From Tubiluchus corallicola (lineage: Eukaryota > Animalia > Priapulida): 64,000 nucleotides of DNA. The number at the start of each line of letters is the position of its first letter. Positions within the stretch are counted from its first letter, which is position 1. The position numbers and the translations under genes are program-made. The stretch covers positions 48,914 through 112,913 of the forward strand of contig JAQGDQ010000685.1 of NCBI GenBank assembly GCA_030141605.1, given 5' to 3'. This document shows, piece by piece, positions 26,424-64,000 of this stretch. Under the pieces are notes generated by a model. The model was not told the origin of the DNA, made no database searches, and was given only the letters and a program-made list of their open reading frames with translations.

Positions 26424-26499
26424 TATTATTATTATTATAATCTTGCTTTATTTTTTCAATATTTTATCAAAGTGTGACCTACAGTCGTAATTCAGTAAT

Positions 26500-31402: not shown

Positions 31403-31859
31403 TATTGCAACAGGCTTGACCACTGCCCACTTTACAACTAGTGTAAGAAAACTGAATGCAGCGTGAACCGTAGGACACATTTGCCCATTCCACGTAACAC
31501 CATAAACCAGTAACGACTAGCTAGACACATCATTACAGCTGTTCACAATTTCAATAAAAGCACAAGACTTACCGACCTGAAACTTATTACACGACCGTCG
31601 TCTTCAAGGGGATTACTTACGCACATTTACAAAATTTGACTTGACCAACAAACGAAAATGTACTCAAGTACTTAAAAATGCGATTTCTAAATTTTGATTT
31701 GATATGCAACAAATAAGTATTGTTATAATCAATTACACGAAACAATTACACTAATGCAAAATAAGACAGACTAGTACTGTAGTTGGCAGTCGTACAATGT
31801 TGATAATATTCTAATCAAATTACATGAAACATTTGCATGTCCACAACTAGGCATATCAT

Positions 31860-32312
31860 ATACCATCGTCCAATGAATCACACGTCCAGTGACGTGATTC
31901 TGTTCACCTCCCCATGCCAGGACTCCCTACATGCTGCAATGCCCCAAGTGGATTTATTTCTAAGGATCAATGCTGAAGTGTTTAAATCTTTCTGTGCAAA
32001 ATCTAAGTATGTTAACATCTGTCCTCCTGCAGGTTTTTTAGCTGGTTCTATGGCTTGTTGAAGAGCTATCTTCACTGGAATATCATCAGGTAGTCTAAGC
32101 ATATGCCCAATCCATCTTAAACGGTGTCTTTTTATTTTTCTTGTCCAAGGTTCTTCTTTTATTTTTTCATATAGATCTTTGTATGAAATTTTCTTTGGCC
32201 ATCTGATACCCAAAATGTTTCTGTAATTTTGCCTTTGAAACACATCTATTTCAGCTTTATGATTTGTTTTTAATGTCCAGAGCTCAGAGTTGTACAGAAA
32301 TACAGTTTCAAC
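31860..32312 (-). mobile_element. RTE-clade LINE 3' fragment, copy 2
   Basis: ORF 31878-32336 is nearly identical to 651-1028. Confidence 0.85.
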
Positions 32313-32371
32313 TAATACAATCATACACCAGCACATCAGAAACTGCTTCTTTAGTGCTTCGTTCCTAAAAC

Positions 32372-38800: not shown

Positions 38801-41800
38801 GCCCAGGCATGTGCCCTGGAGAGACCACTCCAGTGGTTCAAGGATCTGACTGCTCAGCCACAGTTGACGCTGCAGCTCCATCAATGTGATCAATAACTGA
38901 CTTTTTTGGCGCACATTCCTTTGTCTTCCGAGACAGAAGGATGCCAACAACAACTAAATTCCTACTACTAACTTTCGATGTTGTTGTCTACTGCTAAGTG
39001 AATATAGTCTCAAATAGCACGTAGGTCTATTAACTCAAACACACAATTTTAAAACTGTCATTCAGCAAACTTTTTCATATCTCTCGTCTTAATAACTATA
39101 CAAAGCTGCAAGAATTTATCAATTTCATATAAAAAGTATGATTTCTGACATACTACAATAATCAGGCCTGCATAACAATATCAAGACCAGAGATAGGCAG
39201 ATAGTGAATTTGGGGTCACACGGTTGCAGAATGTGCAATAATTTTGCAAATAGTGAATTATGTGCGGATATGCGGACTGAGGAATTCTAATGTCTAAAAT
39301 TGCAGATTTTACGCGAAATTGCAACAAATTTATTCTCTTGTACATTAAAAAGCTTATTGCCACATTAAACACCTTTAATCAGTTTAATCACTAGTTTCTT
39401 TTAAGATGTCCTCATCACCTTCTGCTTTTTTGCTGCTTTCCGATATTTTACGTGGAAATTCCTAGACGCAAAACATTGCTTGTAATTACAAATATTATAG
39501 TTTTTTTTGCTCGAGCCTATTGTGGTTTGTGGCGTGGTGTCATGGGCATGATTATGGTCTAGTGATGTACAGTCGACCCTCGTTAAACCGGACCCCGTTA
39601 GCCCGGATATCGGATAAGACGGACGTCTTCCGTGGTAAAGCAAACTGACCGATTTCCGTCCGAGCCGGAGCGCTAAATACAACACGGCCTACCAACTGTA
39701 CAATAATTTCTTTATCCTCACGGGTAAAGTATTTTAAAGTAATATACAGTATAGTATATAGTGCAATGTATATAAGCCTTATTAAGGTGATTATTCATGT
39801 ATAATATAGACCATATATAGGCATATCGGATAAATCGGACAATCGGCTAAACCGGACTCCCCAAATTAGATCACAACTAATTTACTTTCCAATTACATAC
39901 GCTTACGATCCATGTCTATTTATAATTTATGCATAAAGTAAAACTCGTTGTTGAAAAATGATTCTAGTCGACTATTAACGCTACCATGAATACGTAGTTC
40001 GTTTCCGGCACTTGACCTCCCGTTCGAAAAAGTTCTTCCAGATCGTAGAACTGCAAAAGATAAAAAATCATAATCAGACAAGAAGATATCAAAAGACAAA
40101 TGAAACAACTCATTCAAGCACCGTCACAGATTAGAAGTATAAATATTTATAATTCAGAAGCTTGATCTTAATTTACTTGAGCTTTAACCTGGAATCGTGC
40201 CAAAAATGATAAAAATTTTCAATTTATTAATGATTAATTAATTTGCTACTAAGTTTACTACCAAAAAACCTTTTCAATTTCAAAGTTTTTATTTGGATCA
40301 CTTCTGCCTCTTAAATAATATTTATTTAGCAAATCTGAGATGTATTACAATTTTGTAGAGAATATTTTAAGCTTTCTAGCAATACCGAAGTTACTGTAGT
40401 TGTTTTATCTCATCGGGAAAAATTCCATGTAAAATTTTTCAAGAGTTCTCATAAACAACACATATGCATTAATAATTATTAGCACAAACTGCAAGTTTAA
40501 CAGCTGATATATTTGAATTTTCCAAAGGCATCTCCTCACTTTAAGCAAATACTCAGCACTACAAAAAAGTACATCCGTACAAATAACACATCTTCACTTA
40601 AAGATTGTAATAACAGCCACTTTAAAGATACTTTCGGTAAGTAGCAGCTTTAGCTATCTTGACTCTTTCAGACTGGTAAAAGTTTTCAATTAACGCATTT
40701 AAAGTTAGCGTTTACCTGTCCAAGAAGCAGACTTACCTATCTTGACTCGTCAACACTGGTAAAACTTCTAATTAACACATTTAAAATGACCGTTTACCTG
40801 ACCATGGATGTCACCACAAATTGTCACTGGGGTAGACACCGGTTGAACATTGGATTCTTCTAGTAGCAACGCACAAACGTGGTCACATAGTTTCTGAAAA
40901 TGAGGTTCAAGGTGTGATAAAAGGACACAATATCATGCAGCAATGTTATGCAATGAACAACAAAATCTAGTTTACACTAATGTAATGTAATTACAACGTT
41001 ACGAGGTAATGTAGTAATCCCGTTACGAGGTTTGTGTATAATTAAAACTTAACAGTTTAGGTCTAGAAAAAAATATGTTTGTTTCCGGTCATCGACCGAT
41101 TGTGTCATTTCATAAGCGACTCAATTTATTATGTCGTTTATTAGCACAAAATATGCCTACAGATCATTGACCACATTCACGTTTCATACAGCAGCGTCTA
41201 AAATGCAAACGAAATGACCAGTGGTCACCCACGCAAAATTGTAACTGAATACCAAAGTAGCTATCAGGCATGGTTGCAGCATGCACAATGTGATTGATAA
41301 AGAAGAATCTGGTACTGATCACTCGTCAAAGTGATCACATTGATCACTGATCAAAGTGTAGATGTTTGTCATTATTTGAGCTAACAATATCAAAAATAAA
41401 ATGATCAATTTTCACTAATGAAAAGGGAGCCTCTCAAAGCATTTTATGTACCAGTGAGTTTGGGACTCGGCACAGTTTATATTTGGCACTTTTTAACTGA
41501 ACTGATAACTAAAGTATAGCAAACAGAACATAGCGACATAAGATTCAAAACTTATACAATACAAAAACTATCTACAGTACAGTCACATTTAGTGCAAATT
41601 GTAAATTCAGCCTAGTTACAAAAAGTAAAAGCAAAAATTATAAAAGAAGTAAAAACATAAAATAATTAAATCATAAAGTTATATAAAATTAATAACCTTC
41701 TTGTTATTTTACACAGTAGCTAATGCACACTAATGTTCAGCCATATAGTGTTCAGTTGCATTAACTCAGGGGTGTGCAAATTATCTGACTAGACGGGCCA

Positions 41801-42900
41801 CATTAAACATTCCTGCGGGCCACATGCAGTTTGGTCAAGGAGCCAAGTACAGTAGGACCTAATAACGATTTTTTTCATCCGATTTGCACACATCATTACT
41901 ACTGCACTACTACACTCAAGAAACTATTTTAGCAGTCTATATAAAATTTATATTAAAAACCATATATTTCGTCATGTCTGACAGTGACATTAAGTGATAA
42001 CGGTCTTGTAAGGGTTAATGCCATCCGATCTAGAGGAAAAAACTACCCGCACTATCTTTGCGATATTGGCGTAGACTTCAGCTGGATCGCGTGGGCCGCA
42101 CTTTCATTACATTGACAAACCTCTTCGCCGCACAAGATCTCTCGGTGGGCCGCAAGTGGCCCGCGGGCCGCAGTTTGCACACCCCTGCATTAACTGCTGA
42201 AACTGCTTCAGCAGTACCTGTTCTCATGAATTGGTTATATTAATAATATTAATAATTCCTACAGGTGGCTAACCTTGATAACTCATAGTTCTTAAACCAG
42301 CCTGTCAAAACTAATCAGTCATTATTTTTGCACTTTGTAATATTATTGTATGTTGTAGAGAATTATAAATCATTTAGTTATGTATTTTACTATTACAAAA
42401 AAATGGTGATTAACTAATAAACTTACTTACTTACATGATCACTGCTCAATGGCCAGTTATAATGCACACAATTACGTGTACATATTCTGGATTATTCATT
42501 TAATTTAAAAAGGAAAATCAAGCACAGAGAAGCACAAGTACCTTTTATTAATTAGTTAAAAAGTGAATTTATATATAGACTATTTTTAAATAACATTACA
42601 TTTATAAACTGAAAAAAGTGAAGAACTCTTCAAAATAACACTTAGCAGTTGGTAATCTGGTCAAAAATGTGGTTAACTGGCAATACGTAGATATATAACA
42701 AAAAATGAAATAAAATCCCTACCTACCCAAACGGTAAAATAGCAACAATTCCGAACAATTCCGAAACAAACAAGTTTTAGGACATCATAATATAACTTTT
42801 ATAAGCCACCCTTCTACCTACTCACCTTCAAATCATGCTCTGGCAAATATTTGCATTCTTTTGCAATCTCAACCCATTTATTCAATTCCATAATGCCCAT
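32805..42900 (-). CDS. PPP6C: Serine/threonine-protein phosphatase 6 catalytic subunit, 305 aa, 9 coding exons
   Basis: Exons 42900-42826, 40893-40798, 40050-39985, 38363-38296, 37062-36989, 36350-36271, 35544-35427, 34176-34027, 32995-32805 total 918 nt. Motifs [35 protein letters not shown]-terminal TTPYFL; PP6-type KYLPE.DLK and [10 protein letters not shown]. Confidence 0.96.
32952..33660 (-). repeat. ~118-bp tandem repeat x6 made of the PPP6C last-intron 3' end, acceptor and first ~44 nt of the last exon
   Basis: Each unit reads ...cttcacatttcag|GGTACAAGTTCATGTTTGAAGAAAAACTCGTTACC on the minus strand. Confidence 0.95.
33700..33857. repeat. 78-bp tandem duplication
   Basis: gtgtgattgaatttaagcattaccgaacctgg...tatggtag occurs twice. 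Confidence 0.9.
34177..35426 (-). other. U12-type (minor spliceosome) AT-AC intron of PPP6C
   Basis: 5'ss ATATCCTTTTT at 35426; branch point TTCCTTAAC at 34195-34187; 3'ss TCAC at 34177. Splicing restores the conserved GAFC-D-LVWSDP. Confidence 0.93.
34437..35358. repeat. 51-bp minisatellite, ~18 copies, inside the U12 intron
   Basis: Unit gggagatcaaggagctgcagaagccatagcctctcaactttttctcttaaa. Confidence 0.97.
35662..36129. mobile_element. Tc1/pogo-like MITE sharing its core with hAT-like family B
   Basis: Termini tacactcatatcccggtttgccggac / gtccggctaaccgagatacgagtgta; the interior is the reverse complement of the family B interior. Confidence 0.65.
36482..36936. mobile_element. hAT-like MITE (TAGGGCTGAGA..TCTCAGCCCTA)
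   Basis: TIRs; degenerate 8-bp flanks gtttagac/gtttaaag; internal 28-bp repeat x3. Confidence 0.7.
38515..38952 (+). mobile_element. ~440-bp GC-rich non-autonomous retroelement (SINE-like, probably RTE-related)
   Basis: 11-bp TSD actaaattcct; (AAC)n tail; second copy at 56918-57371. Confidence 0.8.
39570..39862. mobile_element. MITE family C, copy 2 (right end truncated)
   Basis: Near-identical to 28989-29306. Confidence 0.85.
40640..40805 (-). repeat. ~81-bp diverged tandem duplication including the PPP6C exon-2 donor
   Basis: Minus strand: ggtcag|gtaaacggtcattttaaatgtg.. then ggacag|gtaaacgctaactttaaatgcg.. Confidence 0.7.
41767..42187. mobile_element. hAT (Charlie-like) MITE family D, 8-bp TSD cattaact
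   Basis: CAGGGGTGTGCAAA...TTTGCACACCCCTG with a perfect TSD. Confidence 0.9.
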
Positions 42901-44644: not shown

Positions 44645-47600
44645 ATGGCAGACCCGCTGAGTTTGTTGCGCCAGTATAACATTAATCGAAAAGATATAAT
44701 TGAAAGAGATTCACAAATAATTTTTGGTGAATTTTCATGGCCGAAAGCTGTTAAGACAAACTATTTGGCATGGGGGTAAGCAAATTGTTTTACTGACTTT
44801 ACAGTCATCATTATAGTATGATCTGTTCTAGTATTTTTAAATTCAAGTATGGTCTTAATTGGCTCAAGTATATTTGAATGTATTGTGATCTTTATTTTAA
44901 TTGTTATAACTGTTAAGTCTTGGGGGAAAAGCATAGCTGTGACATTACGTCTTGTCAGATTGTAGTTAGTTATTTCAAAGCAATTGACTTCTTAAATGTA
45001 TTCTTGGGTGCATTGACTGTTTTACAACAGTTCCTTACAATACAGCAGCCTACCAATAGGCAATACCTTACCGTATTGACTGTTTCCATGACACTATAAG
45101 CGCTATGCATATCAACAGAGCTCACTGCATTCTTTCTGCTATTTTTCGTCGCTATTCACGAAAATTGCAAGCAATAATTTTTGGAAACCATGTATCTGTC
45201 GAAATTTAAGCGTGATAATTACAGCTGTAGCATTAACTTATTATTGTACTATTAGACGGAAAAGTTTCCCATCTGTCTATTGCTGAGTGATACTTATTTG
45301 AATGATAGTGATCACATTCGAATGAATACGGATCTTCCACGCGCATTACGCATACATAAAGTCATACCTTTAGTTGTAAATAACAATTGCATTACATTAT
45401 ACTTACTCACAAGTAGGTGGTGCACTGTGTCTAACAGTTGTAGTGGGTAAGACGACAGCAGAAAAAGAATTGTTTGACTGATGTAGCTAGGCTTAGACGT
45501 ACTAAATAGAAGACAAGGAACTTTCATACAATGTGTTTTGTTTGCGCATATATTTGCATATTTTTTTACCGTAAATTGATTTCCAATTATGTACTACTTT
45601 CAGGTCAGGAAGGGATGGAACTGCAAAAGAGTATTATACATTGGACTGCGTGCTTTTCTTATTGAAAAATGTTCATCTTTCTCATGGCATATACGTCCGA
45701 CAAGCTGCGGTAATTATCCAACTTTTTAACTATTCATGCAGCCTAGGTGCTGACCGCCTTAACCCTTTCATACCCGTGGTATCCCGTGGGATACGAGAAT
45801 ATTTTCTGCTTTTAAAATTAATAAAATTTTAAAACTGACAGTTGTTTGATCTGTTAATAGTTATTTTGATTTAAGCCAATAACAACAGACTAAAAATGGT
45901 GATAAAATGGCAAACTAGAAAGTCTGCATAGCATAAGAACTGTGCGAGGTACAGTACTCTAGAAATGACTTTGTACAGGTCAGCATAGCATGCATACTAA
46001 ATGTCTTAAATACTTTAAAAAATTACCAACAGTTGCAAAATGAAGCACATTTCATGCTTCCATTGAATCCCAATGTATCCCGTGGGATACAGGCTATATT
46101 TAGCACGCGGGCACAGGTAGAAAAAAAATAATTATTATGTGTAAACAAGATGGACATACTGAACAAAAGTACCAAGCCAAAATTTTTTTTCTTATTAAAA
46201 AATAAAATGGGACTGAAAGGGTTAAAACTTGACATTATTGAAGTTTTTTCATTATATGCACCTTGCTGAATTACTTCAGTTACGATACTTAGTCAGTTAC
46301 GATTCTTAGATCTCATATTTTTCAAACCACTTACCATGTGTAGATTGTTATCTGTGGTTATAAGGAGGCTTAAGCATTAGTGATTCATATTTTTGTTAGC
46401 ACTAAAATCTTGCACATAAATATTACGGAAAAACCTTTTTCATTTCATGAATTAAAAACATTTTGAGCGGGTTTTGCGAAATAAGTGAGCCAGTGGTAAA
46501 CGATTTTATATGGCAGTTGTCTGTAGAAAATTATCAGTGCAGATTGTAAAAATACAGTTGACTTTAAGCCTAGTTTAGTTTGTCAGTGTCAGTTGAAGAT
46601 GCCGAAAGAATTGATACCCACTTTAAATCTACAGGTAGTTGCAGTGACTTACTACCTATGCGATTTACGACTATTCTACTTTAAGTAATTAATTATGCGA
46701 AACCAACTATAACTCATGTTTCTTTGTATTTTTTAAGCAAATTAACTTTAAATAGCTATCTGTTTTGATAAATGAATCGTAGGCACCGCCATACTTAGTG
46801 CACGTACACATGCACCATTTTCCGTGTTGGGATCTAGACTGTGCCGGTCCGACTTGCGTTAAATTCATCTTATGACCAATCCGGTGGTCTCAATTGTGGT
46901 CTGTCATCGACTTGTAATTGCATTTTCTACCCTTTGCCGGTACTACCCATTTTCAAGGAAGTTTTGTCAACATCTTTACTAGGCTGAAAACATACCGGTT
47001 GTGCGACGTCCAGACAGGAGAGATCTTCTAGCTTATCTCAATGGGGAGACGAGTACCTCAGCCAGTATTGACAGGAGTGCTCCGTTGGAACTTCCCTCGC
47101 AAGGTAACATCTGCTTTACGATGTTTTTGCTTTGTTTGTTTGCGCATAATTGTTATAAGAAAACAAAAGCATTTTGAGCTACTCGCATCATTACATTATT
47201 AGGAAGCCATGTTTTCTCGGTAACCACTGAACCAGTTTGTAACAAATAAGAAATCAGAAGAACCATTTATCCTTTTATGGTCTTACGGAAGGTTTATTTT
47301 CTAAAATTAAATCCATCAATAACGCCCATTAAAGATTATATATATATATTATATATTATATATTATACACATATATATATATTGAAGAATTAAACGTAAC
47401 ATCAAGCTCATGAACATGAATATAATTATATGTACCTAATATATATATTTATATTTTATATATTATCATTATTATTTATATTATATGTATTAGCTTGATG
47501 TTGAGTTTAAGTCTTCAAGGGTATATGTGTATTTGCTCATCTATAAATGTATCAAAAAGTAAGTATATATATATGTATATACAATGTTATAAATGTTTGA

Positions 47601-50600
47601 AAGCAATGCTAAATGAGAGTTTGAAAAACATTTACGCCTAATCTGGGGCACGAACCCACGCCTTCTATTATCCATGTGGCGAGCACTAACTTTCATTATT
47701 TTTGTGCAGTTAAGAGGTCGGCACCAGAGCCAGCACCCGAAGTTACAAAGAAACCAAGAATTGAGGTAAAACACGATCGCCATTCGTTTACCAGTCGTAC
47801 CTTGTGTTGCTTAACTCTGTAGCCGAGCGGAATCATCGCTTGGTTATAGCCTCATCATACTTGGTTTTAGTTGGCGTGCTCGGTCAACTGGAATTCCCTT
47901 TTAAATGTTATTTTGTGACGAATAATGAGCACGAAACCGGTGTGCAAGGGAAATGCGCAGAACTAGCAAGTTTTGTTGGCTCCCCATCAACAAACCACCT
48001 TCTCTCAACCTTCTATTATCCTGATTGTAACTCGTTCTTCTTTCAATCTGCTTCATTACTATATTTAATTCTAATGGCAGGTTCAGACTAACGAGTTTTC
48101 TTTCGCAACTTTAAATTCGCAAGTGTGGACTGCTTTGCGAATTGCTATCGGTAAGAATTTGCTGATAGAACGACTATCTAGTGTGAACGCTTCGGCGAGT
48201 AACTCTCGACTCTTCTCACAGGGAGGAGAGAAATGAGTGTCAAGTGTCAATTCGCGCTTACTGTCGCAGAGTAACTTGCAGGAAGTGTTATTTTCTTGTA
48301 CGAACATGCTTGCGAGTTACTTTGCCAGTTACTTGGCGAGTTAACTTGGCAAGAATGCTCGCCAACACATAGTTTTGTTGTACGTACGTGCAGTTATTGT
48401 AGGTCAAAAAATGATAAAACCAACTATAAGCAGCTAAAATTGACAAGGTAAGATCATTTATGGCTGCTCCCTTAGTGGTTTATTAAGCAGTGACTACTAT
48501 ATTTTCATATCTATTAGTAATATTCACCTTTCATAATTTTAAATGATTGTTTTTAAGAAAGTGATGCTTGATGTTTGCTGTTAAAGACATTATGTGTTTA
48601 TTATTATTGTTTAGTGACGTTCACCTTCATGTTTTCAGGAAGAGAAGGTGGCAGCTGCAAAAGAGAGACTTGCCGCTCGTTTAGATGCACCAAAAGAGGG
48701 AAGGGTTCAAGCTTATCAGCATGAAATCAGGTTTGGTGTTAAATGTATGCTAGGTGTTGGTCTTCCAGCCATTCATTCCTGTAAAATTTGAATATGTGTC
48801 TTTGTCCCTTATATATTTTCAGGTCTGCTTAGTTTAAAAATTTAGTCTATCAATACATAAATGATGTTTTTAGTCCCTGAACATCGTTATTAAGGGTTTA
48901 AACAGTGGCGGTTCACAGCTAAAATTAGTGGGGGCGCTGCTTCAGAACATTTTTAGCCATTGTTTTAATATTGTGTAAAATGAAACAAACATATAAAAAG
49001 AAACTTATACATAAATGTGATAAAATCCTAAATAAAAATTTATTTACTTTATAGTTGTTACAGTTCAAGTTAAATTGATTTAATGAATTATTTTACTAAG
49101 TTTAAATTGATCCATTCATTTTAAAAAGAAAATCCATTCTTCTCGTTTTAGTTTGCGCGAAAAGATTAATAATTTTCTTCTTGATCTGTCAGCACTCTCT
49201 ACCTCTCTTTCTACCTATCCTGCAGCATCTTATTTCAAACATGTGCACGTGGCTGCATGCACACAGCAGCCAAACACCACGTTGCTACAGCTGTGAAGCG
49301 TACAGTCCTGAAATTGTGCTTTGCACAGTTCTGTAATGTGCTCTGATTACATATAAGAGTTTACAAGTATGAAGCAACAATTAAAGAAAAAAGACTCATT
49401 GTATTGAATATTAACAATAATATCGAATGAAAATAGAGGGTACGATGCCTATACGAAGAGCCGCCACTGGGTTTAAAACACATGTTCAATATCTAAACGA
49501 ATGATTCCTCACACTGACTAGTTTTACTTTTTAGATGCAATGATTTCTATTAACTTTGAAAAGTTGTCTTAATTATATTACGGAAATGTTCTCTTTTTTT
49601 CACCTTTGTTATAATTGGTAATTATATTCGGTGTTATGAAATTCGTTAGTTTCGATTTAGGTCTGCAAAGCCTGCTTAATAGTTTCTTATTCTCTTGTTT
49701 AACAGAGACTACGAAAGCTTTTTGTGCTCTTTTCATTAGATCACTATCTGAGACAATGTCTGTAGAGAAAATCCTCGCTATCAAAGCGAAGCGTTTGGCA
49801 AAGAAACGCACGATGATTAAAGGCGTCGGTGAGCCGGACGACGGACTCCTGGAACAGCGAAGCTTCGTCGACGCAGAAGTGGACGTGACTAGAGATATTG
49901 TCAGCAGAGAGCGGTTATGGAGGACGCGGACTACTATACTGCAAAGTACAGGAAAGGTAAATGTTTTGTAACTTGATAACTATTTGTAGTGTGTTAGTGA
50001 TGGTGATGTGCAATGATTCTGAAACTGATAGAAACCAGCCATGTTTTCCACCCTTGCAGGCACTAGGGTCTTAGAAACTAGCCATGTTTTCCACCCTTGC
50101 AGGCACCAGGGTCTTAGAAACTAGCCATGTTTTCCACCCTTGCAGGCATCAGGGTCTCAGAAACTAACCATGTTTTCCACCCTTGCAGGCACCAAAGTCT
50201 TAGAAATTAGCCATGTTTTCCACCCTTGCAGGCACCATTGTCTTAGAAACTAGCCATGTTTTCCACCCATGCAAGCACCAGGGTCTTAGAAACTAGCCAT
50301 GTTTTCCACCCATGCAAGCACCAACGTCTTAGAAACTAGCCATGTTTTCCACCCATGCAAGCACCAGGGTCTTAGAAACCAGCCATGTTTTCCACCCATG
50401 CAAGCACCAGGGTCTTAGAAACTAGCCATGTTTTCCACCCATGCAGGCACCAACGTCTTAGAAACTAGCCATGTTTTCCACCGATGCATGCACCAACGTC
50501 TTAGAAACTAGCCATGTTTTCCACCCATGCAGGCACCATTGTCTTAGAAACTAGCCATGTTTTCCACCCTGCACGCACCAGGGTCTTAGAAACTAGCCAT

Positions 50601-53600
50601 ATTTTACACCCATGCAGGCACCAAGGTCTTAGAAACTAGCCATGTTTTCCACCCTTGCAAGCACCAGGGTCTTAGAAACTAGCCATGTTTTCCACCCTTG
50701 CAGGCACCAGGGTCTTAGAAACTAGCCATGTTTTCCACCCTTGCAGGCACCAGGGTCTTAGAAACTAGCCATGTTTTCCACCCATGCAAGCACCAGGGTC
50801 TTAGAAACTAGCCATGTTTTCCACCCTTGCAGGCACCAGGATCTTAGAAACTAGCCATGTTTTCCACCCTTGCAGGCACCAGGGTCTCAGAAACTAACCA
50901 TGTTTTCCACCCTTGCAGGCACCAAAGTCTTAGAAATTAGCCATGTTTTACACCCATGCAGGCACCAGGGTCTTAGAAACTAGCCCTGTTTTCCACCAAT
51001 GCAAGCACTAGGGTCTTAGAAACTAGCCATGTTTTCCACCCATGCAGGCACTTTTGTCTTAGAAACCAGTCATGTTTTCCACCCATGCAGGCACCAAGGT
51101 CTTAGAAACTAACCATGTTTTCTACCCATGCAAGCACCAAGGTCTTAGAAACTAGCCATGTTTTCCACCCATGCAAGCACCAGGGTCTTAGAAACTAACC
51201 ATGTTTTCCACCCATGCAGGCACCAGGGTCTTAGAAACTAGCCATGTTTTCCACCCATGCAAGCACCAGGGTCTTAGAAACTAGTCATGTTTTCCACCCA
51301 TGAAAGCACCAGGGTCTTAGAAACTAGCCATGTTTTCCACCCATGCAAGTACTAGGGTCTTAGAAACTAACCATGTTTTCCACCCATGCAGGCACCAGGG
51401 TCTTAGAAACTAGCCATGTTTTCCACCCATGCAAGTACTAGGGTCTTAGAAACTAACCATGTTTTCCACCCATGCAGGCACCAGGGTCTTAGAAACTAGC
51501 CATGTTTTCCACCCATGTAGGCACCAGGGTCTTAGAAACTAGTCATGTTTTCCACCCATGCAAGCACCAAGGTCTTAGAAACATGCCATGTTTTCCACCC
51601 TTGCAAGCACCAGGGTCTTAGAAACTAACCATGTTTTCCACCCATGCAGGCACCAGGGTCTTAGAAACTAGCCATGTTTTCCACCCATGCAAGCACCAGG
51701 GTCTTAGAAACTAGCCATGTTTTCCACCCATGCAAGCACCAGGGTCTTAGAAACTAGCCATGTTTTCCACCCATGCAAGTACTAGGGTCTTAGAAACTAA
51801 CCATGTTTTCCACCCATGCAGGCACCAGGGTCTTAGAAACTAGCCATGTTTTCCACCCATGCAGGCACCAGGGTCTTAGAAACTAGCCATGTTTTCCACC
51901 CATGTAGGCACCGGGGTCTTGTGCAGAAACTACAGGAATACATGTCAGAAGATTTTTGAAGAATTCTTAGAAGTTATTCAGTCACACATTCACTCACTCT
52001 ATCTGTCACTTTTTCAACTTTTCAACTCTAAATGAGCTACTCCAGAAGCTCCTAAATGAAGTTACTCCAAAAGTGTTCATCCAAGTGAAATTGATTGGGT
52101 AGTGTGTCCTTGGTCCCAGGCAACAGATTTGTCACAATTAGCTAATTAATTAGACATGTTTAATTAATTAATATTATTTGATCCATTTCCAAATATATTT
52201 AACCGAGTTGAATTTTTTTGTGATGATTAGCTAAGACGTCCTTGATTCAAGATCCAAAATTTGTAGCAGTTTGTAAATTAGTTGATTAATTACAGCTGTT
52301 GAATTAATTTTCAATTGATTTGCACAGCATCAAACCTCATTCGTTTGATAGCCCTCTGTCAGTTCTGTTGCATTTTAGTCCACATTTATCCTTGCAAACC
52401 TTGATGCTCGTGTAGTAAACCTTTAGATTTTCTCATTGTATTTTGTAGAATTTTGCTAAGAATATATTTGGTATCTTGGCATCTATTAAAGCCAGAGAGG
52501 AAGGGGTTAAACAACCCGATGCACAAGCCAAGGCTCCAGTTGTTAACAACAATGAAGTAAAAGTAAGTCGATTTTTTTTTGTAGCTTTCTAGTTTTTTAA
52601 GCCTGTGTCCATTAGAAATTGGGCTCCACATTGTTTGTGTTCTATCATAAATGTAACTCATACGCTAAGTCCTCGCTTAACGACGCTACTGCGTTCCAGC
52701 AAAACACGGCGTTAAGCGTAACGTCGTTAAACAAAGGCTTCCATAGAAAGTAATGTAAAATGTACTAATGTAAAATCAATGGAAAGTAATGCAAAATGAG
52801 GTACGTTCCAGAATAAAAAATCAGCGTTACTTAAATCATGTAAATTAAACGTTTCATGAATTTTATTGAATGTTTCTAATGATTTATCTCTTGTTAACAT
52901 TTAAGTTTAGGCCAGGGTTGTGCAAATTGTGGCCCGCGGGCCACTTGCGGCCCGCCGAGAGAATTTGTGCGGCCCGCGCAGAGATTTGTCAACCTAATGA
53001 AAGTGCGGCCCGGGCGATTAATTGAGTGTATCCAGCTGAAGTCCGTGCCACGATCCCAAAGATAGTGCGGATAGTTTTTTCTACTAGATCGGATGCCATT
53101 AACCCTTACAAGACGGTTGTAGCTTAATAACACTGTACTACACAGACTGTGTGATACACATTACTAATATGCATTGTAATGAAATTACCACTATCTGTCC
53201 TGAAAGTAGAAATATATGGTTTGTAATATAGATTTTAATAACTTCTAAAATAGTTTCTTGAGTGTAGTAGTAATGATGTACGCAGGTCGGATGCAAAAAA
53301 AATCGTTATTAGGCCTTTCTGTACTTGGCTCCTTGATCAAACTGCCTGTGGGCCACAGGAATTGCGGGAAAGTTTAATGTGGCCCGGCTAGTCAGATAAT
53401 TTGCACACCCCTGGTTTAGGCAGTGGATAAACAATAATCACTGTAGCAGAGCCAATGCCAAGCACGGGGCGACCTCGGCAATTTTATCTAGTCTAGTTAC
53501 TATAGCAACAGGTTGCAGGCAAAATTTCTTACTCCCATGTCTCGCTTGATACAAACGTGTAGCATTTAGTGGTCAGTTGGAAAGCAGAAACATATACTTA

Positions 53601-56600
53601 TGTAGCATTTAGTGGTCAGTTGGAAAGCGGAAACGTCTACTTATGTAGCATTTAGTGGTCAGTTGGAAAGCAGAAACATATACTTATGTAGCATTTAGTG
53701 GTCAGTTGGAAAGCAGAAACGTATACTTATGTAGCATTTAGTGGTCAGTTGGAAAGCAGAAACGTCTACTTATGTAGCATTTAGTGGTCAGTTGGAAAGC
53801 AGAAACGTATACTTATGTAGCATTTAGTGGTCAGTTGGAAAGCAGAAACGTATACTTATGTAGCATTTAGTGGTCAGTTGGAAAGCAGAAACGTATACTT
53901 ATGTAGCATTTAGTGGTCAGTTGGAAAGCAGAAACGTATACTTATGTAGCATTTAGTGGTCAGTTGGAAAGCAGAAATGCACTCTTATGTAGCAGTTAGT
54001 GGTCAGTTGGAAAGCAGAAACATATACTTATGTAGCATTTAGTGGTCAGTTGGAAAGCAGAAACGTGTACTTATGTACCATTTAGTGGTCAGTTGGAAAG
54101 CAGAAACGTATACTTATGTAGCATTTAGTGCTCAGTTGGAAAGCAAAAACGTATACTTATGTAGCATTTAGTGCTCAGTTGGAAAGCAGAAACGTATACT
54201 TATGTAGCATTTAGTGGTCAGTTGGAAAGCAGAAACATATACTTATGTAGCATTTAGTGGTCAGTTGGAAAGCAGAAACGTATACTTATGTAGCATTTAG
54301 TGGTCAGTTGGAAAGCAGAAACGTATACTTATGTAGCATTTAGTGGTCAGTTGGAAAGCAGAAACGCACACTTATGTAGCATTTAGTGGTCAGTTGGAAA
54401 GCAGAAACGTCTACTTATGTAGCATTTAGTGGTCAGTTGGAAAGCAGAAACGTATACTTATGTAGCATTTAGTGGTCAGTTGGAAAGCAGAAACATATAC
54501 TTATGTAGCATTTAGTGGTCAGTTGGAAAGCAGAAACGCACACTTATGTACCATTTAGTGGTCAGTTGGAAAGCAGAAACGTCTACTTATGTAGCATTTA
54601 GTGGTCAGTTGGAAAGCGGAAACGTATACTTATGTAGCATTTAGTGCTCAGTTGGAAAGCGGAAACGTCTACTTATGTAGCATTTAGTGGTCAGTTGGAA
54701 AGCAGAAACATATACTTATGTAGCATTTAGTGGTCAGTTGGAAAGCAGAAACGTATACTTATGTAGCATTTAGTGGTCAGTTGGAAAGCAGAAACGTATA
54801 CTTATGTAGCATTTAGTGGTCAGTTGGAAAGCAGAAACGCACACTTATGTAGCATTTAGTGGTCAGTTGGAAAGCAGAAACGTATACTTATGTAGCATTT
54901 AGTGGTCAGTTGGAAAGCAGAAACGTATACTTATGTAGCATTTAGTGGTCAGTTGGAAAGCAGAAACGTATACTTATGTAGCATTTAGTGGTCAGTTGGA
55001 AAGCAGAAACGTATACTTATGTAGCATTTAGTGGTCAGTTGGAAAGCAGAAACGTATACTTATGTAGCATTTAGTGGTCAGTTGGAAAGCAGAAACGTAT
55101 ACTTATGTAGCATTTAGTGGTCAGTTGGAAAGCAGAAACGTATACTTATGTAGCATTTAGTGGTCAGTTGGAAAGCAGAAACGTATACTTATGTAGCATT
55201 TAGTGGTCAGTTGGAAAGCAGAAACGTCTACTTATGTAGCATTTAGTGGTCAGTTGGAAAGCAGAAACGTATACTTATGTAGCATTTAGTGGTCAGTTGG
55301 AAAGCAGAAACGTATACTTATGTAGCATTTAGTGGTCAGTTGGAAAGCAGAAACGTATACTTATGTAGCATTTAGTGGTCAGTTGGAAAGCAGAAACGTA
55401 TACTTATGTAGCATTTAGTGGTCAGTTGGAAAGCAGAAACGTATACTTATGTAGCATTTAGTGGTCAGTTGGAAAGCAGAAACGTCTACTTATGTAGCAT
55501 TTAGTGGTCAGTTGGAAAGCAGAAACGTATACTTATGTAGCATTTAGTGGTCAGTTGGAAAGCAGAAACGTATACTTATGTAGCATTTAGTGGTCAGTTG
55601 GAAAGCAGAAACGTATACTTATGTAGCATTTAGTGGTCAGTTGGAAAGCAGAAACGTATACTTATGTAGCATTTAGTGGTCAGTTGGAAAGCAGAAACGT
55701 ATACTTATGTAGCATTTAGTGGTCAGTTGGAAAGCAGAAACGTATACTTATGTAGCATTTAGTGGTCAGTTGGAAAGCAGAAACGTATACTTATGTAGCA
55801 TTTAGTGGTCAGTTGGAAAGCAGAAACGTATACTTATGTAGCATTTAGTGGTCAGTTGGAAAGCAGAAACGTATACTTATGTAGCATTTAGTGGTCAGTT
55901 GGAAAGCAGAAACGTATACTTATGTAGCATTTAGTGGTCAGTTGGAAAGCAGAAACGTATACTTATGTAGCATTTAGTGGTCAGTTGGAAAGCAGAAACG
56001 TATACTTATGTAGCATTTAGTGGTCAGTTGGAAAGCAGAAACGTATACTTATGTAGCATTTAGTGGTCAGTTGGAAAGCAGAAACGTATACTTATGTAGC
56101 ATTTAGTGGTCAGTTGGAAAGCAGAAACGTATACTTATGTAGCATTTAGTGGTCAGTTGGAAAGCGAAACGTACTTATGTAGCATTTAGTGGTCAGTTGG
56201 AAAGCAGAAACGTATACTTATGTAGCATTTAGTGGTCAGTTGGAAAGCAGAAACGTATACTTATGTAGCATTTAGTGGTCAGTTGGAAAGCAAAAACGTA
56301 TACTTATGTAGCATTTAGTGGTCAGTTGGAAAGCAGAAACGTATACTTATGTAGCATTTAGTGGTCAGTTGGAAAGCAGAAACGTATACTTATGTAGTAA
56401 TTGCACCGTTTACATTACTAGTGCATATTCAGAACACACTTATGTAGTAATTGCACTGTTTACATTACTAGTGCATATTTAGAACAGAATAATGCAATAT
56501 GTACTGGTGTAATTCTTCAAATTAGGTATAAATGTTGTTGATAAAATAAAAATTGGCTTTGAGCCAAGTAAAAAAAAAATCGTCGTTAAGCAGAAAAGGA

Positions 56601-59600
56601 TGTTAAACGATCGGCAGCGCTAAAACGAAATGTCGCTAAACGGAGGACTTACTGTATCAGCTTTTGTGTATTTTGTCAACTTACTTAGATTAATTTACTT
56701 ATCGTTACACACAATAATATAAACACGTGCAATTGTAAATACTTAATACTTGCTGTTTTGTTTCTAGCAAACAACAAAACCTCAACAGCCTGTAGTATAT
56801 AACAGATACGAACAAGAACAGCTAACGAAATCAAAAGAAGGTACAATTTTCTTTATAGTATAATATGTACAAAAAAGCTTATCGTTTTCTCATTTTTACA
56901 CCTGCCTAACATTTAATTGCTCGGCATCCTTCTGTCTCGGAAGACAATGGAGTGTGCGCCAAGAGAGTCAGTTATTGATCACATTGATGGAGCTGCAGCG
57001 TCGACTGTGGCTGAGCAGTGCGATCCTTGAACGTCTCCAGGGCACACGCCTGGGCAAGGTGTATGGAGATCCTGAGTTGCCCGGACATCAGGAATCCCTT
57101 CTCTTCCTCCCTGGTGTAGTCCAAAGGAAAGCGGAGCGATACGTTTGGCACCAGGTTGGCTGCAGGAGTTGCCGGAGTCAGTGAGCATGCTGTACTGGTC
57201 AGCCTTCGGGGCTCCACTCCTGATTTGGAAGGTTTACTCCTCTACACATGGCCGTTGGGTTCCTTGACCTCCTCCGCCCTCTAGCCATTGGCTGCTTGTG
57301 CAGCTCCTCCGCCCTCTAGCCGTTGGCTGCTTGTGCAGCTCCTCCACCTAGTGTCGAGATACAGTGTGGGCAACATTTAATAAAGGCATAATAATCTTGG
57401 GGTCAATTAAACATTTGTTAATTGAGTATGAAATACAGGAAGCATAAAAAGCTTTACAGGAAATGACTTCCTTCGAACAAAAATGTTTTGTTAGTGAGTA
57501 ATGAAAGCAAGAAACATTTTTCTTTGTAGCTATGTCAATGGTAAATAGACTGGCAAATAACCGTTTTTATTTTTCGTCCTGCAGAAACGGAAGGATTTAA
57601 AATCGACACCATCGGTTCTTACCACGGCATGACATTGAAGTCGGTGACAGAGGGCGCTTCGGCTCGGAAAGCTTTGCCCGAACCACAACAACCACAGACG
57701 CAGCAGCCGAAACCGATATCACAGGCAAGACCACCAACTTCTAGTAAAAGAGGTAACATTTTCACTCTCTCCTGTGAAAGTTCAATGAAGTCTGTTCATG
57801 TAGCTGATCTGTTTTTTTAAGTGAAACAGTGCAGGGATGAGAATTTTCCGCGCAAATTCCGAGTTTTGACTAGTTGGCAGGCCGTCACTTTATTTACATC
57901 ACGTGCATCAGTGTAACCACGTGTTTATCTCTATGTATAAAAACATAGAATCAATTGTGCAGAGTTATTTGAGTCAATTGCAGACAGTTTTTATATAATT
58001 TTGCATAGGAGCGGCCAGTACTTAGGCGTTTTTGAGACAATTAGGTATCATGTATCCTTGATAGTTGGGTATTTTAAATTATGCATGAAACAAGGTAATT
58101 GATATTTTAAGTCCACTTAGAGGCTCTCTATGGCCACAAAATTGTAGGCTGCTTAAGTGGGGGCTTAAGTGGCCCCAAAACTCCCAGCCTGTTTCAGAGT
58201 TTTTTGCAATTTGTCATTCTCATCCCTGACAGTGTGAGAGTATGGTTTTATTTTTCAGGTTCTCGCACACCGATTATCATCATTCCAGCAGCAACTACGT
58301 CAATTATAACCATGTACAATGTGAAGGACATGCTACAAGATACGAGGTTGGTAAAATATTTCATATCTACATTTACATACATCGTTTGGAAACATTAGTT
58401 TTACCCAAGAAAGTTTTCCACAAATGCGTTTCTTGTAGGTTCATAAGTACAGACGATAAGAAGAAACAAGGAGCTAAGAGAGATAACGAAGTTTTGATAC
58501 AGCGTCGAAAAGAGGGTGGACATACGGTGCCATACAGAGTCATTGATAATCCACTTAAATTAGCACAGGAAGACTGGTATGACTGTTACTCAATTTCCTG
58601 AATGAATCATGATTTTTTTGCCTCAAATGTCATTGATAATCCACTTAAATTAGCACCGGAAGACTGGTATGACTGTTACTCAATTTCCTGAATGAATCAT
58701 GATTTTTTTGCCTCAAATGTCATTGATAATCCACTTAAATTAGCACCGGAAGACTGGTATGACTGTTACTCAATTTCCTGAATGAATCGTGATTTTTTTG
58801 CCTCAAATGTCATTGATAATCCACTTAAATTAGCACCGGAAGACTGGTATGACTGTTACTCAATTTCCTGAATGAATCATGATTTTTTCGCCTCAAATGT
58901 CATTGATAATCCACTTAAATTAGCACCGGAAGACTGGTATGACTGTTACTCAATTTCCTGAATGAATCGTGATTTTTTTGCCTCAAATGTCATTGATAAT
59001 CCACTTAAATTAGCACCGGAAGACTGGTATGACTGTTACTCCGTTTCCTGAATGAATCGTGATTTTTTTGCCTCAAATGTCATTGATAATCCACTTAAAT
59101 TAGCACCGGAAGACTGGTATGACTGTTACTCCGTTTCCTGAATGTACAGTGCCATACAGAGTCATTGATAATCCACTTAAATTAGCACCGGAAGACTGGT
59201 ATGACTGTTACTCCGTTTCCTGAATGAATCATGATTTTTTTGCCTCAAATGTCATTGATAATCCACTTAAATTAGCACCGGAAGACTGGTATGACTGTTA
59301 CTCAATTTCCTGAATGAATCATGATTTTTTTGCCTCAAATGTCATTGATAATCCACTTAAATTAGCACCGGAAGACTGGTATGACTGTTACTCAATTTCC
59401 TGAATGAATCGTGATTTTTTTGCCTCAAATGTCATTGATAATCCACTTAAATTAGCACCGGAAGACTGGTATGACTGTTACTGTATTTCCTGAATGTTCA
59501 GTGCCATACAGAGTCATTGATAATCCACTTAAATTAGCACCGGAAGACTGGTATGACTGTTACTCTATTTCCTGAATGTGCAGTGCCATTCAGAGTCATT

Positions 59601-61929
59601 CATAATCCACTTAAATTAGCACCGGAAGACTGGTATGACTGTTACTCCATTTCCTGAATGTTCAGTGCCATACAGAGTCATTGATAATCCACTTAAATTA
59701 GCACCGGAAGACTGGTATGACTGTTACTCCATTTCCTGAATGTACAGTGCCATACAGAGTCATTCATAATCCACTTAAATTAGCACCAGAAGACTGGTAT
59801 GACTGTTACTCTATTTCCTGAATGTTCAGTGCCATACAGAGTCATTCATAATCCACTTAAATTAGCACCGGAAGACTGGTATGACTGTTACTCCATTTCC
59901 TGAATGTACAGTGCCATACAGAGTCATTCATAATCCACTTAAATTAGCACCAGAAGACTGGTATGACTGTTACTCTATTTCCTGAATGTTCAGTGCCATA
60001 CAGAGTCATTGATAATCCACTTAAATTAGCACCGGAAGACTGGTATGACTGTTACTCTATTTCCTGAATGTTCAGTGCCATACAGAGTCATTCATAATCC
60101 ACTTAAATTAGCACCGGAAGACTGGTATGACTGTTACTCTATTTCCTGAATGTACAGTGCCATACAGAGTCATTGATAATCCACTTAAATTAGCACCGGA
60201 AGACTGGTATGACTGTTACTCTATTTCCTGAATGTTCAGTGCCATACAGAGTCATTGATAATCCACTTAAATTAGCACCGGAAGACTGGTATGACTGTTA
60301 CTCTATTTCCTGAATGTGCAGTGCCATACAGAGTCATTCATAATCCACTTAAATTAGCACCGGAAGACTGGTATGACTGTTACTCTATTTCCTGAATGTT
60401 CAGTGCCATACAGAGTCATTGATAATCCACTTAAATTAGCACCGGAAGACTGGTATGACTGTTACTCTATTTCCTGAATGTACAGTGCCATACAGAGTCA
60501 TTGATAATCCACTTAAATTAGCACCGGAAGACTGGTATGACTGTTACTCTATTTCCTGAATGTACAGTGCCATACAGAGTCATTCATAATCCACTTAAAT
60601 TAGCACCAGAAGACTGGTATGACTGTTGCTCAATTTCCTGAATGAATCGTGATTTTTTTGCCTCAAATGTATCCTTTTGCCCAAAAATAAATTTTCCTTT
60701 ATCAAAGTTTAATAGCTTCATAGATTTGAAAGAAAGCGGGCTGATGTTTTTAACATAAGAAAATAGTCAGAATTTTTTCAACAACACTGCAGGACCCAGA
60801 TTTTTCAAATTAGCACTTTTTACTGACTTTATACGAAACTCATGCAGGCTGAATCCACATGCCAGCCCCATTGTTCGCTGTTGCTCGAAAATATGTAACG
60901 ATGATCTCGGCTAGTTAACTTTGAAACAGGCTAACCCCGTTGTGGTCAGCGGTCAAACAAATTAGCTGCACACGGTGTCAGGCAATCAGAATCAGGGATG
61001 AGAATTTTCCGCGGATACGCGGAATTCCGAGTATTTGGAAGACCAATAGTTTTTACGGACTATGTATAAAAACATAGAATCAATTGTGTGGAGTTATTTG
61101 AGTCAATTGCAGACAGTTTTTATATACTTTTGCATAGGAGCGGCCAGTACTTAGGCATTTTTGAGTCAATTAGGTATCATGTATCCTTGATAGTTGGGTA
61201 TTTTAAATTATGAAACGGGTAATTGATGTTTTAAGTTCACTTAGAGGCTCTCTATGGTCACAAAATTGCAATTTGTTGCTGGCTCCCCTTGAACTCCATT
61301 GGGGGCCTAGATGGCCCTAAAACCCCCGGCCTGTTTCAGAGTTTTTTACAATTGGTCATTCTCATCCCTGCAGAATATTCATTAGCATAGATTTGCGCTA
61401 ATAATTTTGCTCCGCGTTACTTAAAATGCTGAAAAACTGCCAAAACACGTTAAACCACCAAGTTGGTTTCCTTGATTATGAGTTTTGGATAGTGCTGCCA
61501 CCTTCAGGTGTTCTTGTTAAAATTGTTAAAGCTTTCTCTTTACTGTTTAAATTTTCATTGGCTTCTACAGTCTTTATGAATGCATAATCTCTAAACCTGT
61601 TTTCACACCTAAATGATTTCACCTGTAGTTTTGGTCACTTGGTTTTCTGCTTTTCAACAGGACACTACTTCACTGTTTATGTAGACACTTCAGAATAAAA
61701 TCTTAAAACCAGTTTTTTGGTTTCTTCAAACCAGCCACCTATAAGGGATTTCTAAGTTTTCATGAAATTATGCATCTGATTTTGTTACCAAATTGTTTTC
61801 AAATATTTCTATTATGTTTTTCCGCTTTGTTTAACAGGGATAGAGTCGTGGCCGTGTTTGTGCAGGGACCAGCCTGGCAATTCAAGGGATGGCCATGGAA
61901 CGGGAATCCAGTGGAGATTTTTGACCGAA
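44645..61929 (+). CDS. CDC73: Parafibromin (PAF1 complex subunit CDC73), coding exons 1-12
   Basis: Exons 44645-44775, 45604-45709, 46983-47103, 47710-47765, 48639-48730, 49740-49956, 52449-52562, 56768-56840, 57585-57752, 58259-58346, 58439-58576, 61838-61929. Peptides [83 protein letters not shown]. Confidence 0.96.
45763..46221. mobile_element. piggyBac-like MITE
   Basis: TTAA|CCCTTTCA...TGAAAGGG|TTAA. Confidence 0.8.
48903..49469. mobile_element. hAT-like MITE, 8-bp TSD ggtttaaa
   Basis: CAGTGGCGG...CCGCCACTG with a perfect TSD. Confidence 0.85.
50030..51920. repeat. 43-bp minisatellite, ~44 copies
   Basis: Unit agaaactagccatgttttccacccttgcaggcaccagggtctt. Confidence 0.97.
52913..53413. 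mobile_element. hAT MITE family D, copy 2 (inverted), 8-bp TSD gtttaggc
   Basis: TIRs plus a perfect TSD; reverse complement of 41767-42187. Confidence 0.9.
53558..56395. repeat. 43-bp satellite, ~66 copies
   Basis: Unit tgtagcatttagtggtcagttggaaagcagaaacgtatactta. Confidence 0.97.
56918..57371 (-). mobile_element. SINE-like RTE-related element, copy 2
   Basis: Reverse complement of 38515-38952; 10-bp TSD aacatttaat. Confidence 0.8.
57832..58228. mobile_element. hAT-like MITE family B, 6-bp TSD acagtg
   Basis: TIRs plus TSD. Confidence 0.9.
58539..60670 (+). repeat. Tandem array (~25 units of 90 and 82 bp) of the CDC73 exon-11 3' end plus donor
   Basis: Each unit contains GTCATTGATAATCCACTTAAATTAGCACCGGAAGACTG|gtatga. 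Confidence 0.96.
60993..61370. mobile_element. hAT-like MITE family B, 6-bp TSD cagaat
   Basis: TIRs plus TSD. Confidence 0.9.
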
Positions 61930-61969
61930 GTATGGACAGATAATAATTTTGTTGTTATATGAACGACCT

Positions 61970-63157
61970 CCTGTTCTCCACAGAAAACAGCGGAATTCAG
62001 GAAAATGGGCATCTGAAACAGAAATACCTATGAAAACCGGAATTAGCGCGATTTCCGACTTTTCTGTAAATTTAATGCATCTTTGACGCGGAATTTTCTT
62101 CCCTTGTTACTTGCAAAACTAAGCCGTTTTTTCAGCATTTCGCAACTTTAATAGAAGTACTTCCTCGAGTTTTATTTTTTATGCAACTTGCGTTCCTACT
62201 TTCCCTTTTTCGTATTTGCCACAAGAAATTTGGGAAATCCTTTAGTGCGAGGCTTGTAACGAATAGCAGTACATTTGTGGAAAGGTTTCCCATGTTGACA
62301 CAAACACGATATGACGATGTTATGCGTGTGACAGCTAGCTTCCTGATGATTTGTATTGCGGATGCGCCCAGTCCAGGCAAAGAAACGGCAAAAATCAGTA
62401 TTGAACTCTGCGATAGACCTGCATTTTATTAAAATAACAGATCACAAAAAGTGCTTAAGAATGTGCTAAAGGTTATTACTATTTAGACAAAATAAAAAGT
62501 TAGATTTAAGAAGACACAAATTATTACTTTATGATTCTAGACATTTGAAGCAATTCTAACCAATTTAAACTATTAACTAATTATTAAAGTAGATGGTGAC
62601 TTACATTTACTGGTGACAACTTTGACTTGAAAATACAATTAGGGACTGTTAAATTGTAACAAAATAGACAAAGCAATGCAAGTATCACCAAAATGGCATG
62701 ATCAGCATAGCGGCAACAGAAAATGTAACTACGTGTAAGAACAAGTGTGATTGATAGGTGGCGTATACTACTAAAGCTTAGGTCACATGACTAAGGCTGG
62801 CTTTGTTTTAAACACTTTCAGGAAATGCATGTTGGTAAAAATGCGAAAAGAAGACAAATAATTATAGAATGCTAGATTAAATTGCTTGACACCAACATGT
62901 ATGAATATGATAGGATATTGTTCTGTAACTTTTGTGCGCGAATTAAATGTTGGCGTTCTTATTTTATTTTAGCCAAATACAAATACCTGATAGAGTACAT
63001 ACTTAATTCATATAAAAAAATTATTGTTTTTTATTACCATCTATCGAACATCACATAATTTGAGGATTAGTATTAGTTACCGGGCCATGTAGCTTCTAAT
63101 TTCTGCGAAGCGGAATTGAAACAGAATTGATGATTCTTTGAAAATTACGAAGGCCCT
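61970..63157. mobile_element. Probable non-autonomous DNA transposon with one intact-looking end
   Basis: Right end ...gaaaattacgaaggccct and subterminal (g)cggaatt words at both ends; no matching agggccttcgtaat at the left end. Confidence 0.45.
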
Positions 63158-63182
63158 TCTTCGCAAACTCATCCATACTTAC

Positions 63183-63324
63183 TTGTCCAAAACTTCCCAA
63201 AACTTGATTAACGACGCCCGATCTAAATGTCTCTTCATCTTGCTCAGTTGAATCACATGAACCGACCACTTGGCAACGTTTGAATCTAGCGGCAGTTCAT
63301 CCCATTTTACGTGAAATGCTTTAA
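63183..63324 (-). CDS. CDC73: CDC73 penultimate coding exon, on the opposite strand to the rest of the gene
   Basis: ttgcag|TTAAAGCATTTCAC...GACAA|gtaagt encodes (I)KAFHVKWDELPLDSNVAKWSVHVIQLSKMKRHLDRASLIKFWEVLD(K), matching parafibromin IKAFHLKYDE..KRHLDR..FWETLD. Its phase fits exon 12. Confidence 0.93.
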
Positions 63325-63524
63325 CTGCAATATGAACATGAACCGTGAACAAAAACGTGAACATGAACAGTATCTCATTGGCTGTTATGCAAATTCAAGA
63401 CGAAACACAGACAGATTTATAAAATATTTGGAACAATAATCATAATATCATAGTCCCATAATCAAAATGTTAATGTAAAAAATTTATTCGCATTTTACAT
63501 GTGTTAGCATGGCATAGATTACGT

Positions 63525-64000
63525 ATATATATATATAAATAATAATCTTTATTTGCCATTAAAATACATTGATAATCACCGATAAAAACTTTACAGAGAT
63601 GATCAATCAGTGTTAGTTAATAAAAACTTACACTGCTGAAGGCAAATGAGTCAGTGCAATCTAAACTACTGTGCAGTAATGGAAAGTAACGACGAATAAA
63701 ATCAAACATATTTACAGCTATGCACAAAAAAATGAAAAAAACTATGATTTAATTAATATGGCCGTGGATATATGAATTCTGAATTAGTGTGTATGTTGTC
63801 GTGCTGGTGTGATGGTATTTCATATCTGGTTAATATTAGTGATTTTAATTTTGTTTTAAATGCTGATGGAGACTTGATTTGTTTAACCTGTAATGGTAGA
63901 GAATTCCAAAAAGTGAATTGGTTGTTTGATTACAGAGTTCGTTCCATAGTGGGTATTTGTCCTAATTTGTTTTAGATTGCTTGTTCTGGAATTAACGATA
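63525..64000 (-). mobile_element. CR1/L2-like LINE 3' end (same family as 3308-3720)
   Basis: Minus strand [24 protein letters not shown], then a 3'UTR with AATAAA next to (TA)n. Confidence 0.75.

Follow-up and report, generated by a model that had tools for sequence, protein, structure and literature searches.

The stretch of DNA analysed here, 64,000 nucleotides of a contig of Tubiluchus corallicola (hereafter the window), carries a CDC73 gene. Exons 1-12 of this gene lie on the + strand from 44645 to 61929, as assessed by tblastn with homologues, a check of the splice sites and an open frame (Table 1). The edges of exons 4, 5, 7, 8 and 9, which are less conserved, represent best fits. All 12 exons on the + strand are bordered by GT donors and AG acceptors, save that exon 1 begins with an ATG instead. 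The penultimate exon, exon 13, lies on the - strand. When the 12 exons on the + strand are joined to it, the resulting 13-exon model comprises 512 codons with 0 stops, and the codon split between exons 12 and 13 specifies Ile. The CDC73_N (PF16050) and CDC73_C (PF05179) domains follow each other in order within a single open frame, which places the gene among the CDC73/parafibromin genes; exon 12 accounts for positions 81-109 of Pfam CDC73_C. Identity to homologues reaches 69% in a trimmed alignment, and the best protein match to exon 6, among the best 120 of 473 matches, is 83% identical; a CDC73 protein of the species itself is found neither among those 120 nor among 15 matches to exon 13. 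In a CDC73 tree of 27 rows, the window sequence falls in no supported clade. The intron that precedes the penultimate exon is at the same place in human CDC73, which has 17 exons as against 13 seen, and a 14th expected, in the window gene. The gene is an ordinary CDC73/parafibromin orthologue, set apart only by the strand on which exon 13 has been assembled.

Table 1. Positions of the CDC73 exons, of the introns that flank exon 13 and of the join, in window coordinates.
Feature	Position	Strand	Remarks
CDC73 exons 1-4	44645-44775, 45604-45709, 46983-47103, 47710-47765	+	tblastn of homologues, splice sites, open frame
CDC73 exons 5-8	48639-48730, 49740-49956, 52449-52562, 56768-56840	+	tblastn of homologues, splice sites, open frame
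CDC73 exons 9-11	57585-57752, 58259-58346, 58439-58576	+	tblastn of homologues, splice sites, open frame
CDC73 exon 12	61838-61929	+	92 nt, AG acceptor, GT donor, phase 1 end
Intron 12, 5' part	61930-63143	+	mostly repeats, by depth bins of public-run contigs
Join, 7-nt overlap	63137-63143	.	probable inversion breakpoint, private to this assembly
Intron 13, first 46 nt	63137-63182	-	GTAAGT donor at 63182-63177
CDC73 exon 13 (penultimate)	63324-63183	-	142 nt, TTGCAG acceptor, GTAAGT donor, phase 2 end
Intron 12, 3' part, carried along with exon 13	63325-64000	-	acceptor, T-rich flank; runs off the window
Dispersed repeat in 3' part of intron 12	63524-63926		94% like 3336-3735

The peptide encoded by exon 13 on the - strand matches positions 111-156 of the 158 positions of Pfam CDC73_C (E 6.9e-11), directly after the match of exon 12, and residues 474-519 of the 531 residues of human parafibromin (E 7.3e-13). 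Both matches are, by these E values, far beyond chance. Of the 17 exons of the human gene, exon 15 contains Leu461 and exon 16 contains Leu478 (PMC5698716); together with the match to residues 474-519, this placement makes exon 13 the counterpart of the human penultimate exon 16. The exon shows no sign of decay, with a mean identity of 70% to 25 homologues as compared to 66% among those homologues, and its best protein match, among 15 matches, is 83% identical. The human counterpart exon is likewise 142 nt long. The flank of the acceptor of exon 13 is T-rich when read on the - strand; on the + strand the T/A skew beside exon 13 is -0.25, as against positive values at 10 of the 11 other CDC73 intron ends. 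That exon 13 is as conserved as expected, together with the T-rich acceptor flank on the - strand, suggests that a genomic block was flipped, either recently or artificially. The possibility that exon 13 is a retrocopy was rejected, as the intron flanks are kept.

These results confirm that the backwards exon 13 is really present in the sequence of the window. The preliminary description had placed exons 1-12 on the + strand and an intact exon 13 on the - strand, and our coordinates, splice sites and Ile split codon agree with it. It had also reported that the window holds neither a + copy of exon 13 nor a terminal exon, and this was borne out. When used in tblastn, all four full-length homologues matched the exon 13 segment solely on the - strand, and no second exon 13 was detected on the + strand of the window. 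Nor was any other 3' exon of CDC73 found in the window with the homologues or with a terminal-exon profile. The profile covers the last 11 residues and was built from 22 distinct homologue tails, which themselves score 28.6-35.8 bits; no terminal exon was found with it on either strand of the window, the best of 3,624 candidates preceded by AG scoring 6.4 bits and the best candidate without the AG requirement scoring 11.7 bits.

The window contains 0 N, and the strand switch is thus not at a scaffold gap. The preliminary description had listed a mis-oriented assembly block among its options; as a scaffold block this option falls, since the switch occurs without an assembly gap, and the flip must therefore be a join within a contig. 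What stands of the option is mis-oriented sequence within the contig, which fits a join at 63137-63143 that the public contigs do not follow. The edge of this join at 63137 is 46 nt beyond the donor of exon 13. On its left, the repeats of intron 12 have a low copy number at about 62015-62360, a very high one at about 62365-62920 and a moderate one at about 62920-63143, as estimated from depth bins.

Six public runs were listed, four of which contain part of 58000-64000, from two studies. The join emerged from a comparison over 60700-64000 with four of the six (X1, X2, X3 and X6), all of them as contigs rather than reads; X1, X2 and X3 are DNA runs, X1 is the deepest, and X1 and X2 are one sample. 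In three of the four runs compared, X1, X2 and X3, the contig with exon 13 starts to match the window at exactly 63137. The X1 contig (X1#8) shows 0 mismatches in 352 nt and has 109 unmatched letters beyond 63137; the X2 contig (X2#16) shows 2 mismatches in 405 nt and has 28 unmatched letters; and the X3 contig (X3#23) shows 3 mismatches in 364 nt, its support for the 63137 edge amounting to only 2 unmatched letters at a depth of 4.8. X6, a possible RNA run, contributed 3 short repeat pieces only, with no cover of exon 13, and is uninformative either way. From the other side, a second X1 contig (X1#6) matches 62989-63143 with 1 mismatch in 155 nt, at a depth of 161.3, and then continues with 47 other letters. 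Among the X1 contigs, X1#6 alone carries the letters of the window at 63032, 63064, 63068 and 63081, which identifies it as the window's own left flank. Another contig, a more divergent copy of this moderately repeated flank (X1#7, 86% alike), also ceases to match at 63143. Both flanks of the join are present in X1, each continuing into different sequence; X2#16 and X3#23 represent the right flank only. Because X1#8 starts at 63137 and X1#6 stops at 63143, the two overlap by 7 nt on the window, at a join that is absent from X1. Both X1 contigs pass the place of the join without ending, at depths of 161-187. From the way assembly graphs work, the X1 contigs would be expected to break off there if the join were heterozygous. 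This suggests that X1 lacks the join of the window even as a heterozygote.

Among the joints seen, 63137-63143 is the one at which contigs nearly identical to the window depart from it on either side. Of the 95 rows of the joint table, 15 were seen, and the unmatched letters at 63137 and 63143 are not among them; none of the contigs seen links exon 12 with exon 13, in either orientation. A contig that skips from about 62105-62350 to 63137 may still occur among the 80 other joint rows. The segment 61810-61920 has no cover in the four runs compared, from which some records were filtered out, and cover resumes at about 62015. This gap is a weak hint that the 109 unmatched letters of X1#8 are not located at the start of intron 12.

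The bin 63253-63363, which overlaps exon 13, is covered in X1 by X1#8 alone. Its depth of 186.9 is 1.06-1.18 times the values for three other single contigs, although contig depths indicate copy number only roughly and some records have been filtered out. In X3, exon 13 is covered by X3#23 alone. In X2, the depth of the exon 13 bin (4.71) is slightly above that of X2#16 (3.75). Since a single contig covers the exon in each, the samples of X1 and X3 hold one copy of exon 13 at a likeness of at least 85%. These observations bear on the possibility, put forward before, that a spare exon 13 was inserted backwards in intron 12 while the working exon lies on the + strand beyond 64000. Such a duplicate would start at the same join and, as the end of the gene is outside the window, a + copy beyond 64000 is possible for this haplotype. 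However, it is weakened by the finding of only one contig over exon 13 in both X1 and X3, in X1 at single-copy depth; no second copy was found in either, a result that pertains to the samples and not to the window's own haplotype. We regard an inverted duplicate as unlikely.

Exon 13 likely lies beside an inversion junction that is peculiar to this assembly. We give about an even chance to the view that this junction is an artefact, most probably a chimeric read of the inverted type that entered the contig. The strand switch must fall within 61930-63182, and the join at 63137-63143 fits this requirement. A strand copying intron 12 from left to right would, at the 7-nt overlap, have switched strands to a point 46 nt into intron 13, and from there would have run back across exon 13 and into the distal part of intron 12. 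Presumably, the template switch took place in the tube or in the assembler rather than in the animal, and the parting of the contigs would reflect an inversion rather than a deletion. The species at large would have a co-linear CDC73 (exon 12, intron, exon 13, intron and terminal exon, all on the + strand), spliced in cis. The sample of X1 may be the animal assembled into the window. If so, the join is an artefact outright, because X1 does not hold it.

The inverted type is the commonest among amplification chimeras (up to 91%), false inversions have a mean length of 1,493 bp, and inverted chimeras can get into assembly graphs (10.64898/2026.06.11.730069). Like the inverted chimeras described in assemblies, the flip in the window is a local strand switch within a contig, on the kb scale and absent from other data; here, however, the flipped block extends past the edge of the window. 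Lasken and Stockwell, in 2007, reportedly found short overlaps at the joins of inverted chimeras. A 7-nt overlap is equally in line with a real inversion by template switching. The same two-sided contig pattern could also arise if the window had lost a segment by deletion and kept its orientation. Copies of the repeat match through the 7-nt word of the join. A simple transposon insertion with a target-site duplication is unlikely, the 7-nt word having no second copy in 61930-63136.

An origin of the join as an artefact is weakened by the rarity of chimeras outside MDA, which make up at most 0.81% of PCR-amplified and unamplified HiFi reads as against 69.3% for MDA (PMC11809032), and by the finding of at most one suspect contig in one MDA animal assembly (PMC11660948). 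It is also weakened because the other three genes of the window have no flipped exon and its long tandem arrays look well resolved. All nine exons of the PP6-like gene are on the - strand, whereas all Pfam matches of AOX (5/5) and 6PGL (3/3) are on the + strand; no flipped exon was found in these three genes, the Pfam strand check covering 140 of 185 open frames (70 of the 70 frames around AOX and 70 of the 115 around 6PGL). The same check also returned two sub-threshold DUF matches on the - strand, and one PP6 query gave a chance match on the + strand (E 0.95).

Possibly, the join is instead a rare but real inversion in the sequenced animal, likely heterozygous, in which a template switch in vivo flipped exon 13. 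The outcome would be a null or truncated CDC73 allele, covered by the other haplotype. We see this as possible rather than probable. With a rare allele, this join would likewise be expected, as would its lack in other individuals, and the inversion allele proposed in the preliminary description accordingly fits a join at 63137-63143 that the contigs of the public runs do not follow. The join is inside a gap-free contig, and 7 nt of overlap would not lead an assembler to connect two sequences if the connection were missing from the reads. The genome also looks prone to local template slippage: exon ends have been copied into tandem arrays in both CDC73 and the PP6-like gene, and there is much local tandem copying. 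Moreover, the absence of decay in exon 13 (70% versus 66%) is as expected if the inversion is young. Conversely, the join is absent from every run compared (X1, X2, X3 and X6), and a rare allele requires that the sample of X1 come from an animal other than the one assembled, since the X1 contigs do not branch at this place. To arrangements other than an artefact, an allele, a duplicate or trans-splicing we assign a small residual probability.

If the flip were fixed or common in the species, a + transcript with exons 1-12 could be trans-spliced to a - transcript with exon 13. In that case, the join at 63137-63143 would have arisen separately, as a small deletion. We consider this very unlikely. 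In its favour, exon 13 is intact and conserved, as are its reading frame and the splice sites at its two ends, and a microhomology deletion would yield the same contig pattern as an inversion. Read-through of the exon 13 donor meets an immediate stop, giving a product of 513 aa, so that a single trans-splice could nearly complete the protein. It has been suggested that convergent transcripts may pair where they overlap (PMC9258826), and such transcripts could pair by overlap here too. However, trans-splicing requires a coincidental rearrangement 46 nt from exon 13, and either leaves the intact donor at 63182 idle or calls for a second trans-splice. No terminal exon is found downstream on the - strand. 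No direct repeat through which the transcripts might pair was found between 61930-63136 and 63325-64000, the longest shared word, of 11 nt, being at chance level (84 of 200 shuffles reach it). Nor is there an unusually strong U1 or pseudo-5' splice site; by a crude identity count, the best has 8 of 11 matches, as against 7-9 in 10 of the 11 other introns. The trans-splicing option of the preliminary description thus found no support in a pairing repeat, a strong pseudo-5' splice site or a terminal exon on the - strand.

Established cases differ from the window in the same respects. In C. elegans, direct repeats of about 930 bp drive the trans-splicing of eri-6/7, a transposon-driven inversion is present in about 80% of strains, and the fused mRNA has been shown (10.1101/2024.01.15.575659). 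As in the window as assembled, one ancestral gene is partly inverted, at a locus that in the case of eri-6/7 is transposon-rich and polymorphic among individuals. The window, in contrast, has no repeat of the 930-bp type, its join is in no run compared, and the arrangement is known here from DNA. At the Drosophila mod(mdg4) and lola loci, the 3' exons form alternative sets that have promoters of their own, and there is a conserved TSA motif to which U1 binds (PMC12692577, PMC4387717). There, too, a coding exon is opposite in strand to the upstream exons, whereas in the window a single constitutive internal exon, followed by its own donor, is concerned and a strong U1 site is absent. A pairing repeat of the eri-6/7 type, a U1 site of the mod(mdg4)/lola type and multiple alternative 3' terminal exons were all absent from the window. 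An eri-6/7-like rescue of the conserved housekeeping gene CDC73 without direct repeats, in which convergent transcripts would pair through antisense overlap, is highly improbable; it would possibly involve two trans-splices around one internal exon. Among the literature matches listed, as judged by title or start of abstract, none dealt with trans-splicing of CDC73, and nothing among those listed was specific to an inverted exon and misassembly.

The flip of exon 13 is therefore likely private to the assembly, whether it is artefactual or a rare allele that breaks the gene, and is probably not a case of trans-splicing. As assembled, the allele would read into intron 12 and end after 469 aa, lacking the final third of the Ras-like domain, which ties Paf1C to chromatin (PMC5688130). 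If the join is artefactual, its importance is limited to an assembly error by which the CDC73 annotation of this genome would be cut short. If it is a real allele, it represents an ordinary gene-breaking inversion in a wild animal, with part of the Ras-like domain lost. Trans-splicing, unlikely as it is, would if true be the only reading to amount to a major result. All of these readings are made testable by the coordinates of the join, 63137-63143. The source of the window has intron-rich genes, and an AOX gene is present.

CDC73 exon 11 has its 3′ end, together with the donor site, repeated about 25 times head to tail into intron 11, in an array at 58527-60644 (+ strand) whose units are initially 90 nt and thereafter 82 nt long. 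Intron 11 consequently carries many in-register pseudo-donors. The PP6-like phosphatase gene, which lies head to head with CDC73 at a distance of about 1.75 kb, contains an exon-edge array of the same type: about six tandem repeats of a 119-nt unit comprise the start of its last exon and the upstream flank of that exon (32952-33661, - strand).

Long minisatellite arrays are numerous in the window, and several are intronic; their units measure 5-51 nt and their copy number reaches 170. A MITE-like element of high copy number, bounded by terminal inverted repeats and presumably hAT-like from its appearance, occurs four times in the window, and there are two dispersed repeat pairs whose members are oppositely oriented and 92-93% alike. 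By eye, the sequence of the pair that begins at 726 reads like the 3′ end of a LINE.

Other genes and repeats in the window (window coordinates)
Feature	Position	Strand	Remark
Animal alternative oxidase (AOX) gene	2018-6540	+	five exons matching Pfam
6-Phosphogluconolactonase-like gene	21924-24511	+	
PP6-like phosphatase catalytic subunit gene	32808-42888	-	complete
Minisatellite array	9128-10630		
Minisatellite array	13287-14229		
Minisatellite array	27142-27904		
Minisatellite array	29676-30857		
Minisatellite array	34438-35359		
Minisatellite array	50029-51920		
Minisatellite array	53558-56397		
MITE-like element copy	about 24580-25092		
MITE-like element copy	about 26492-27002		
MITE-like element copy	57832-58228		
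MITE-like element copy	60993-61370		
Dispersed repeat pair	726-1189 and 31853-32315		opposite orientation
Dispersed repeat pair	38543-38945 and 56923-57313		opposite orientation
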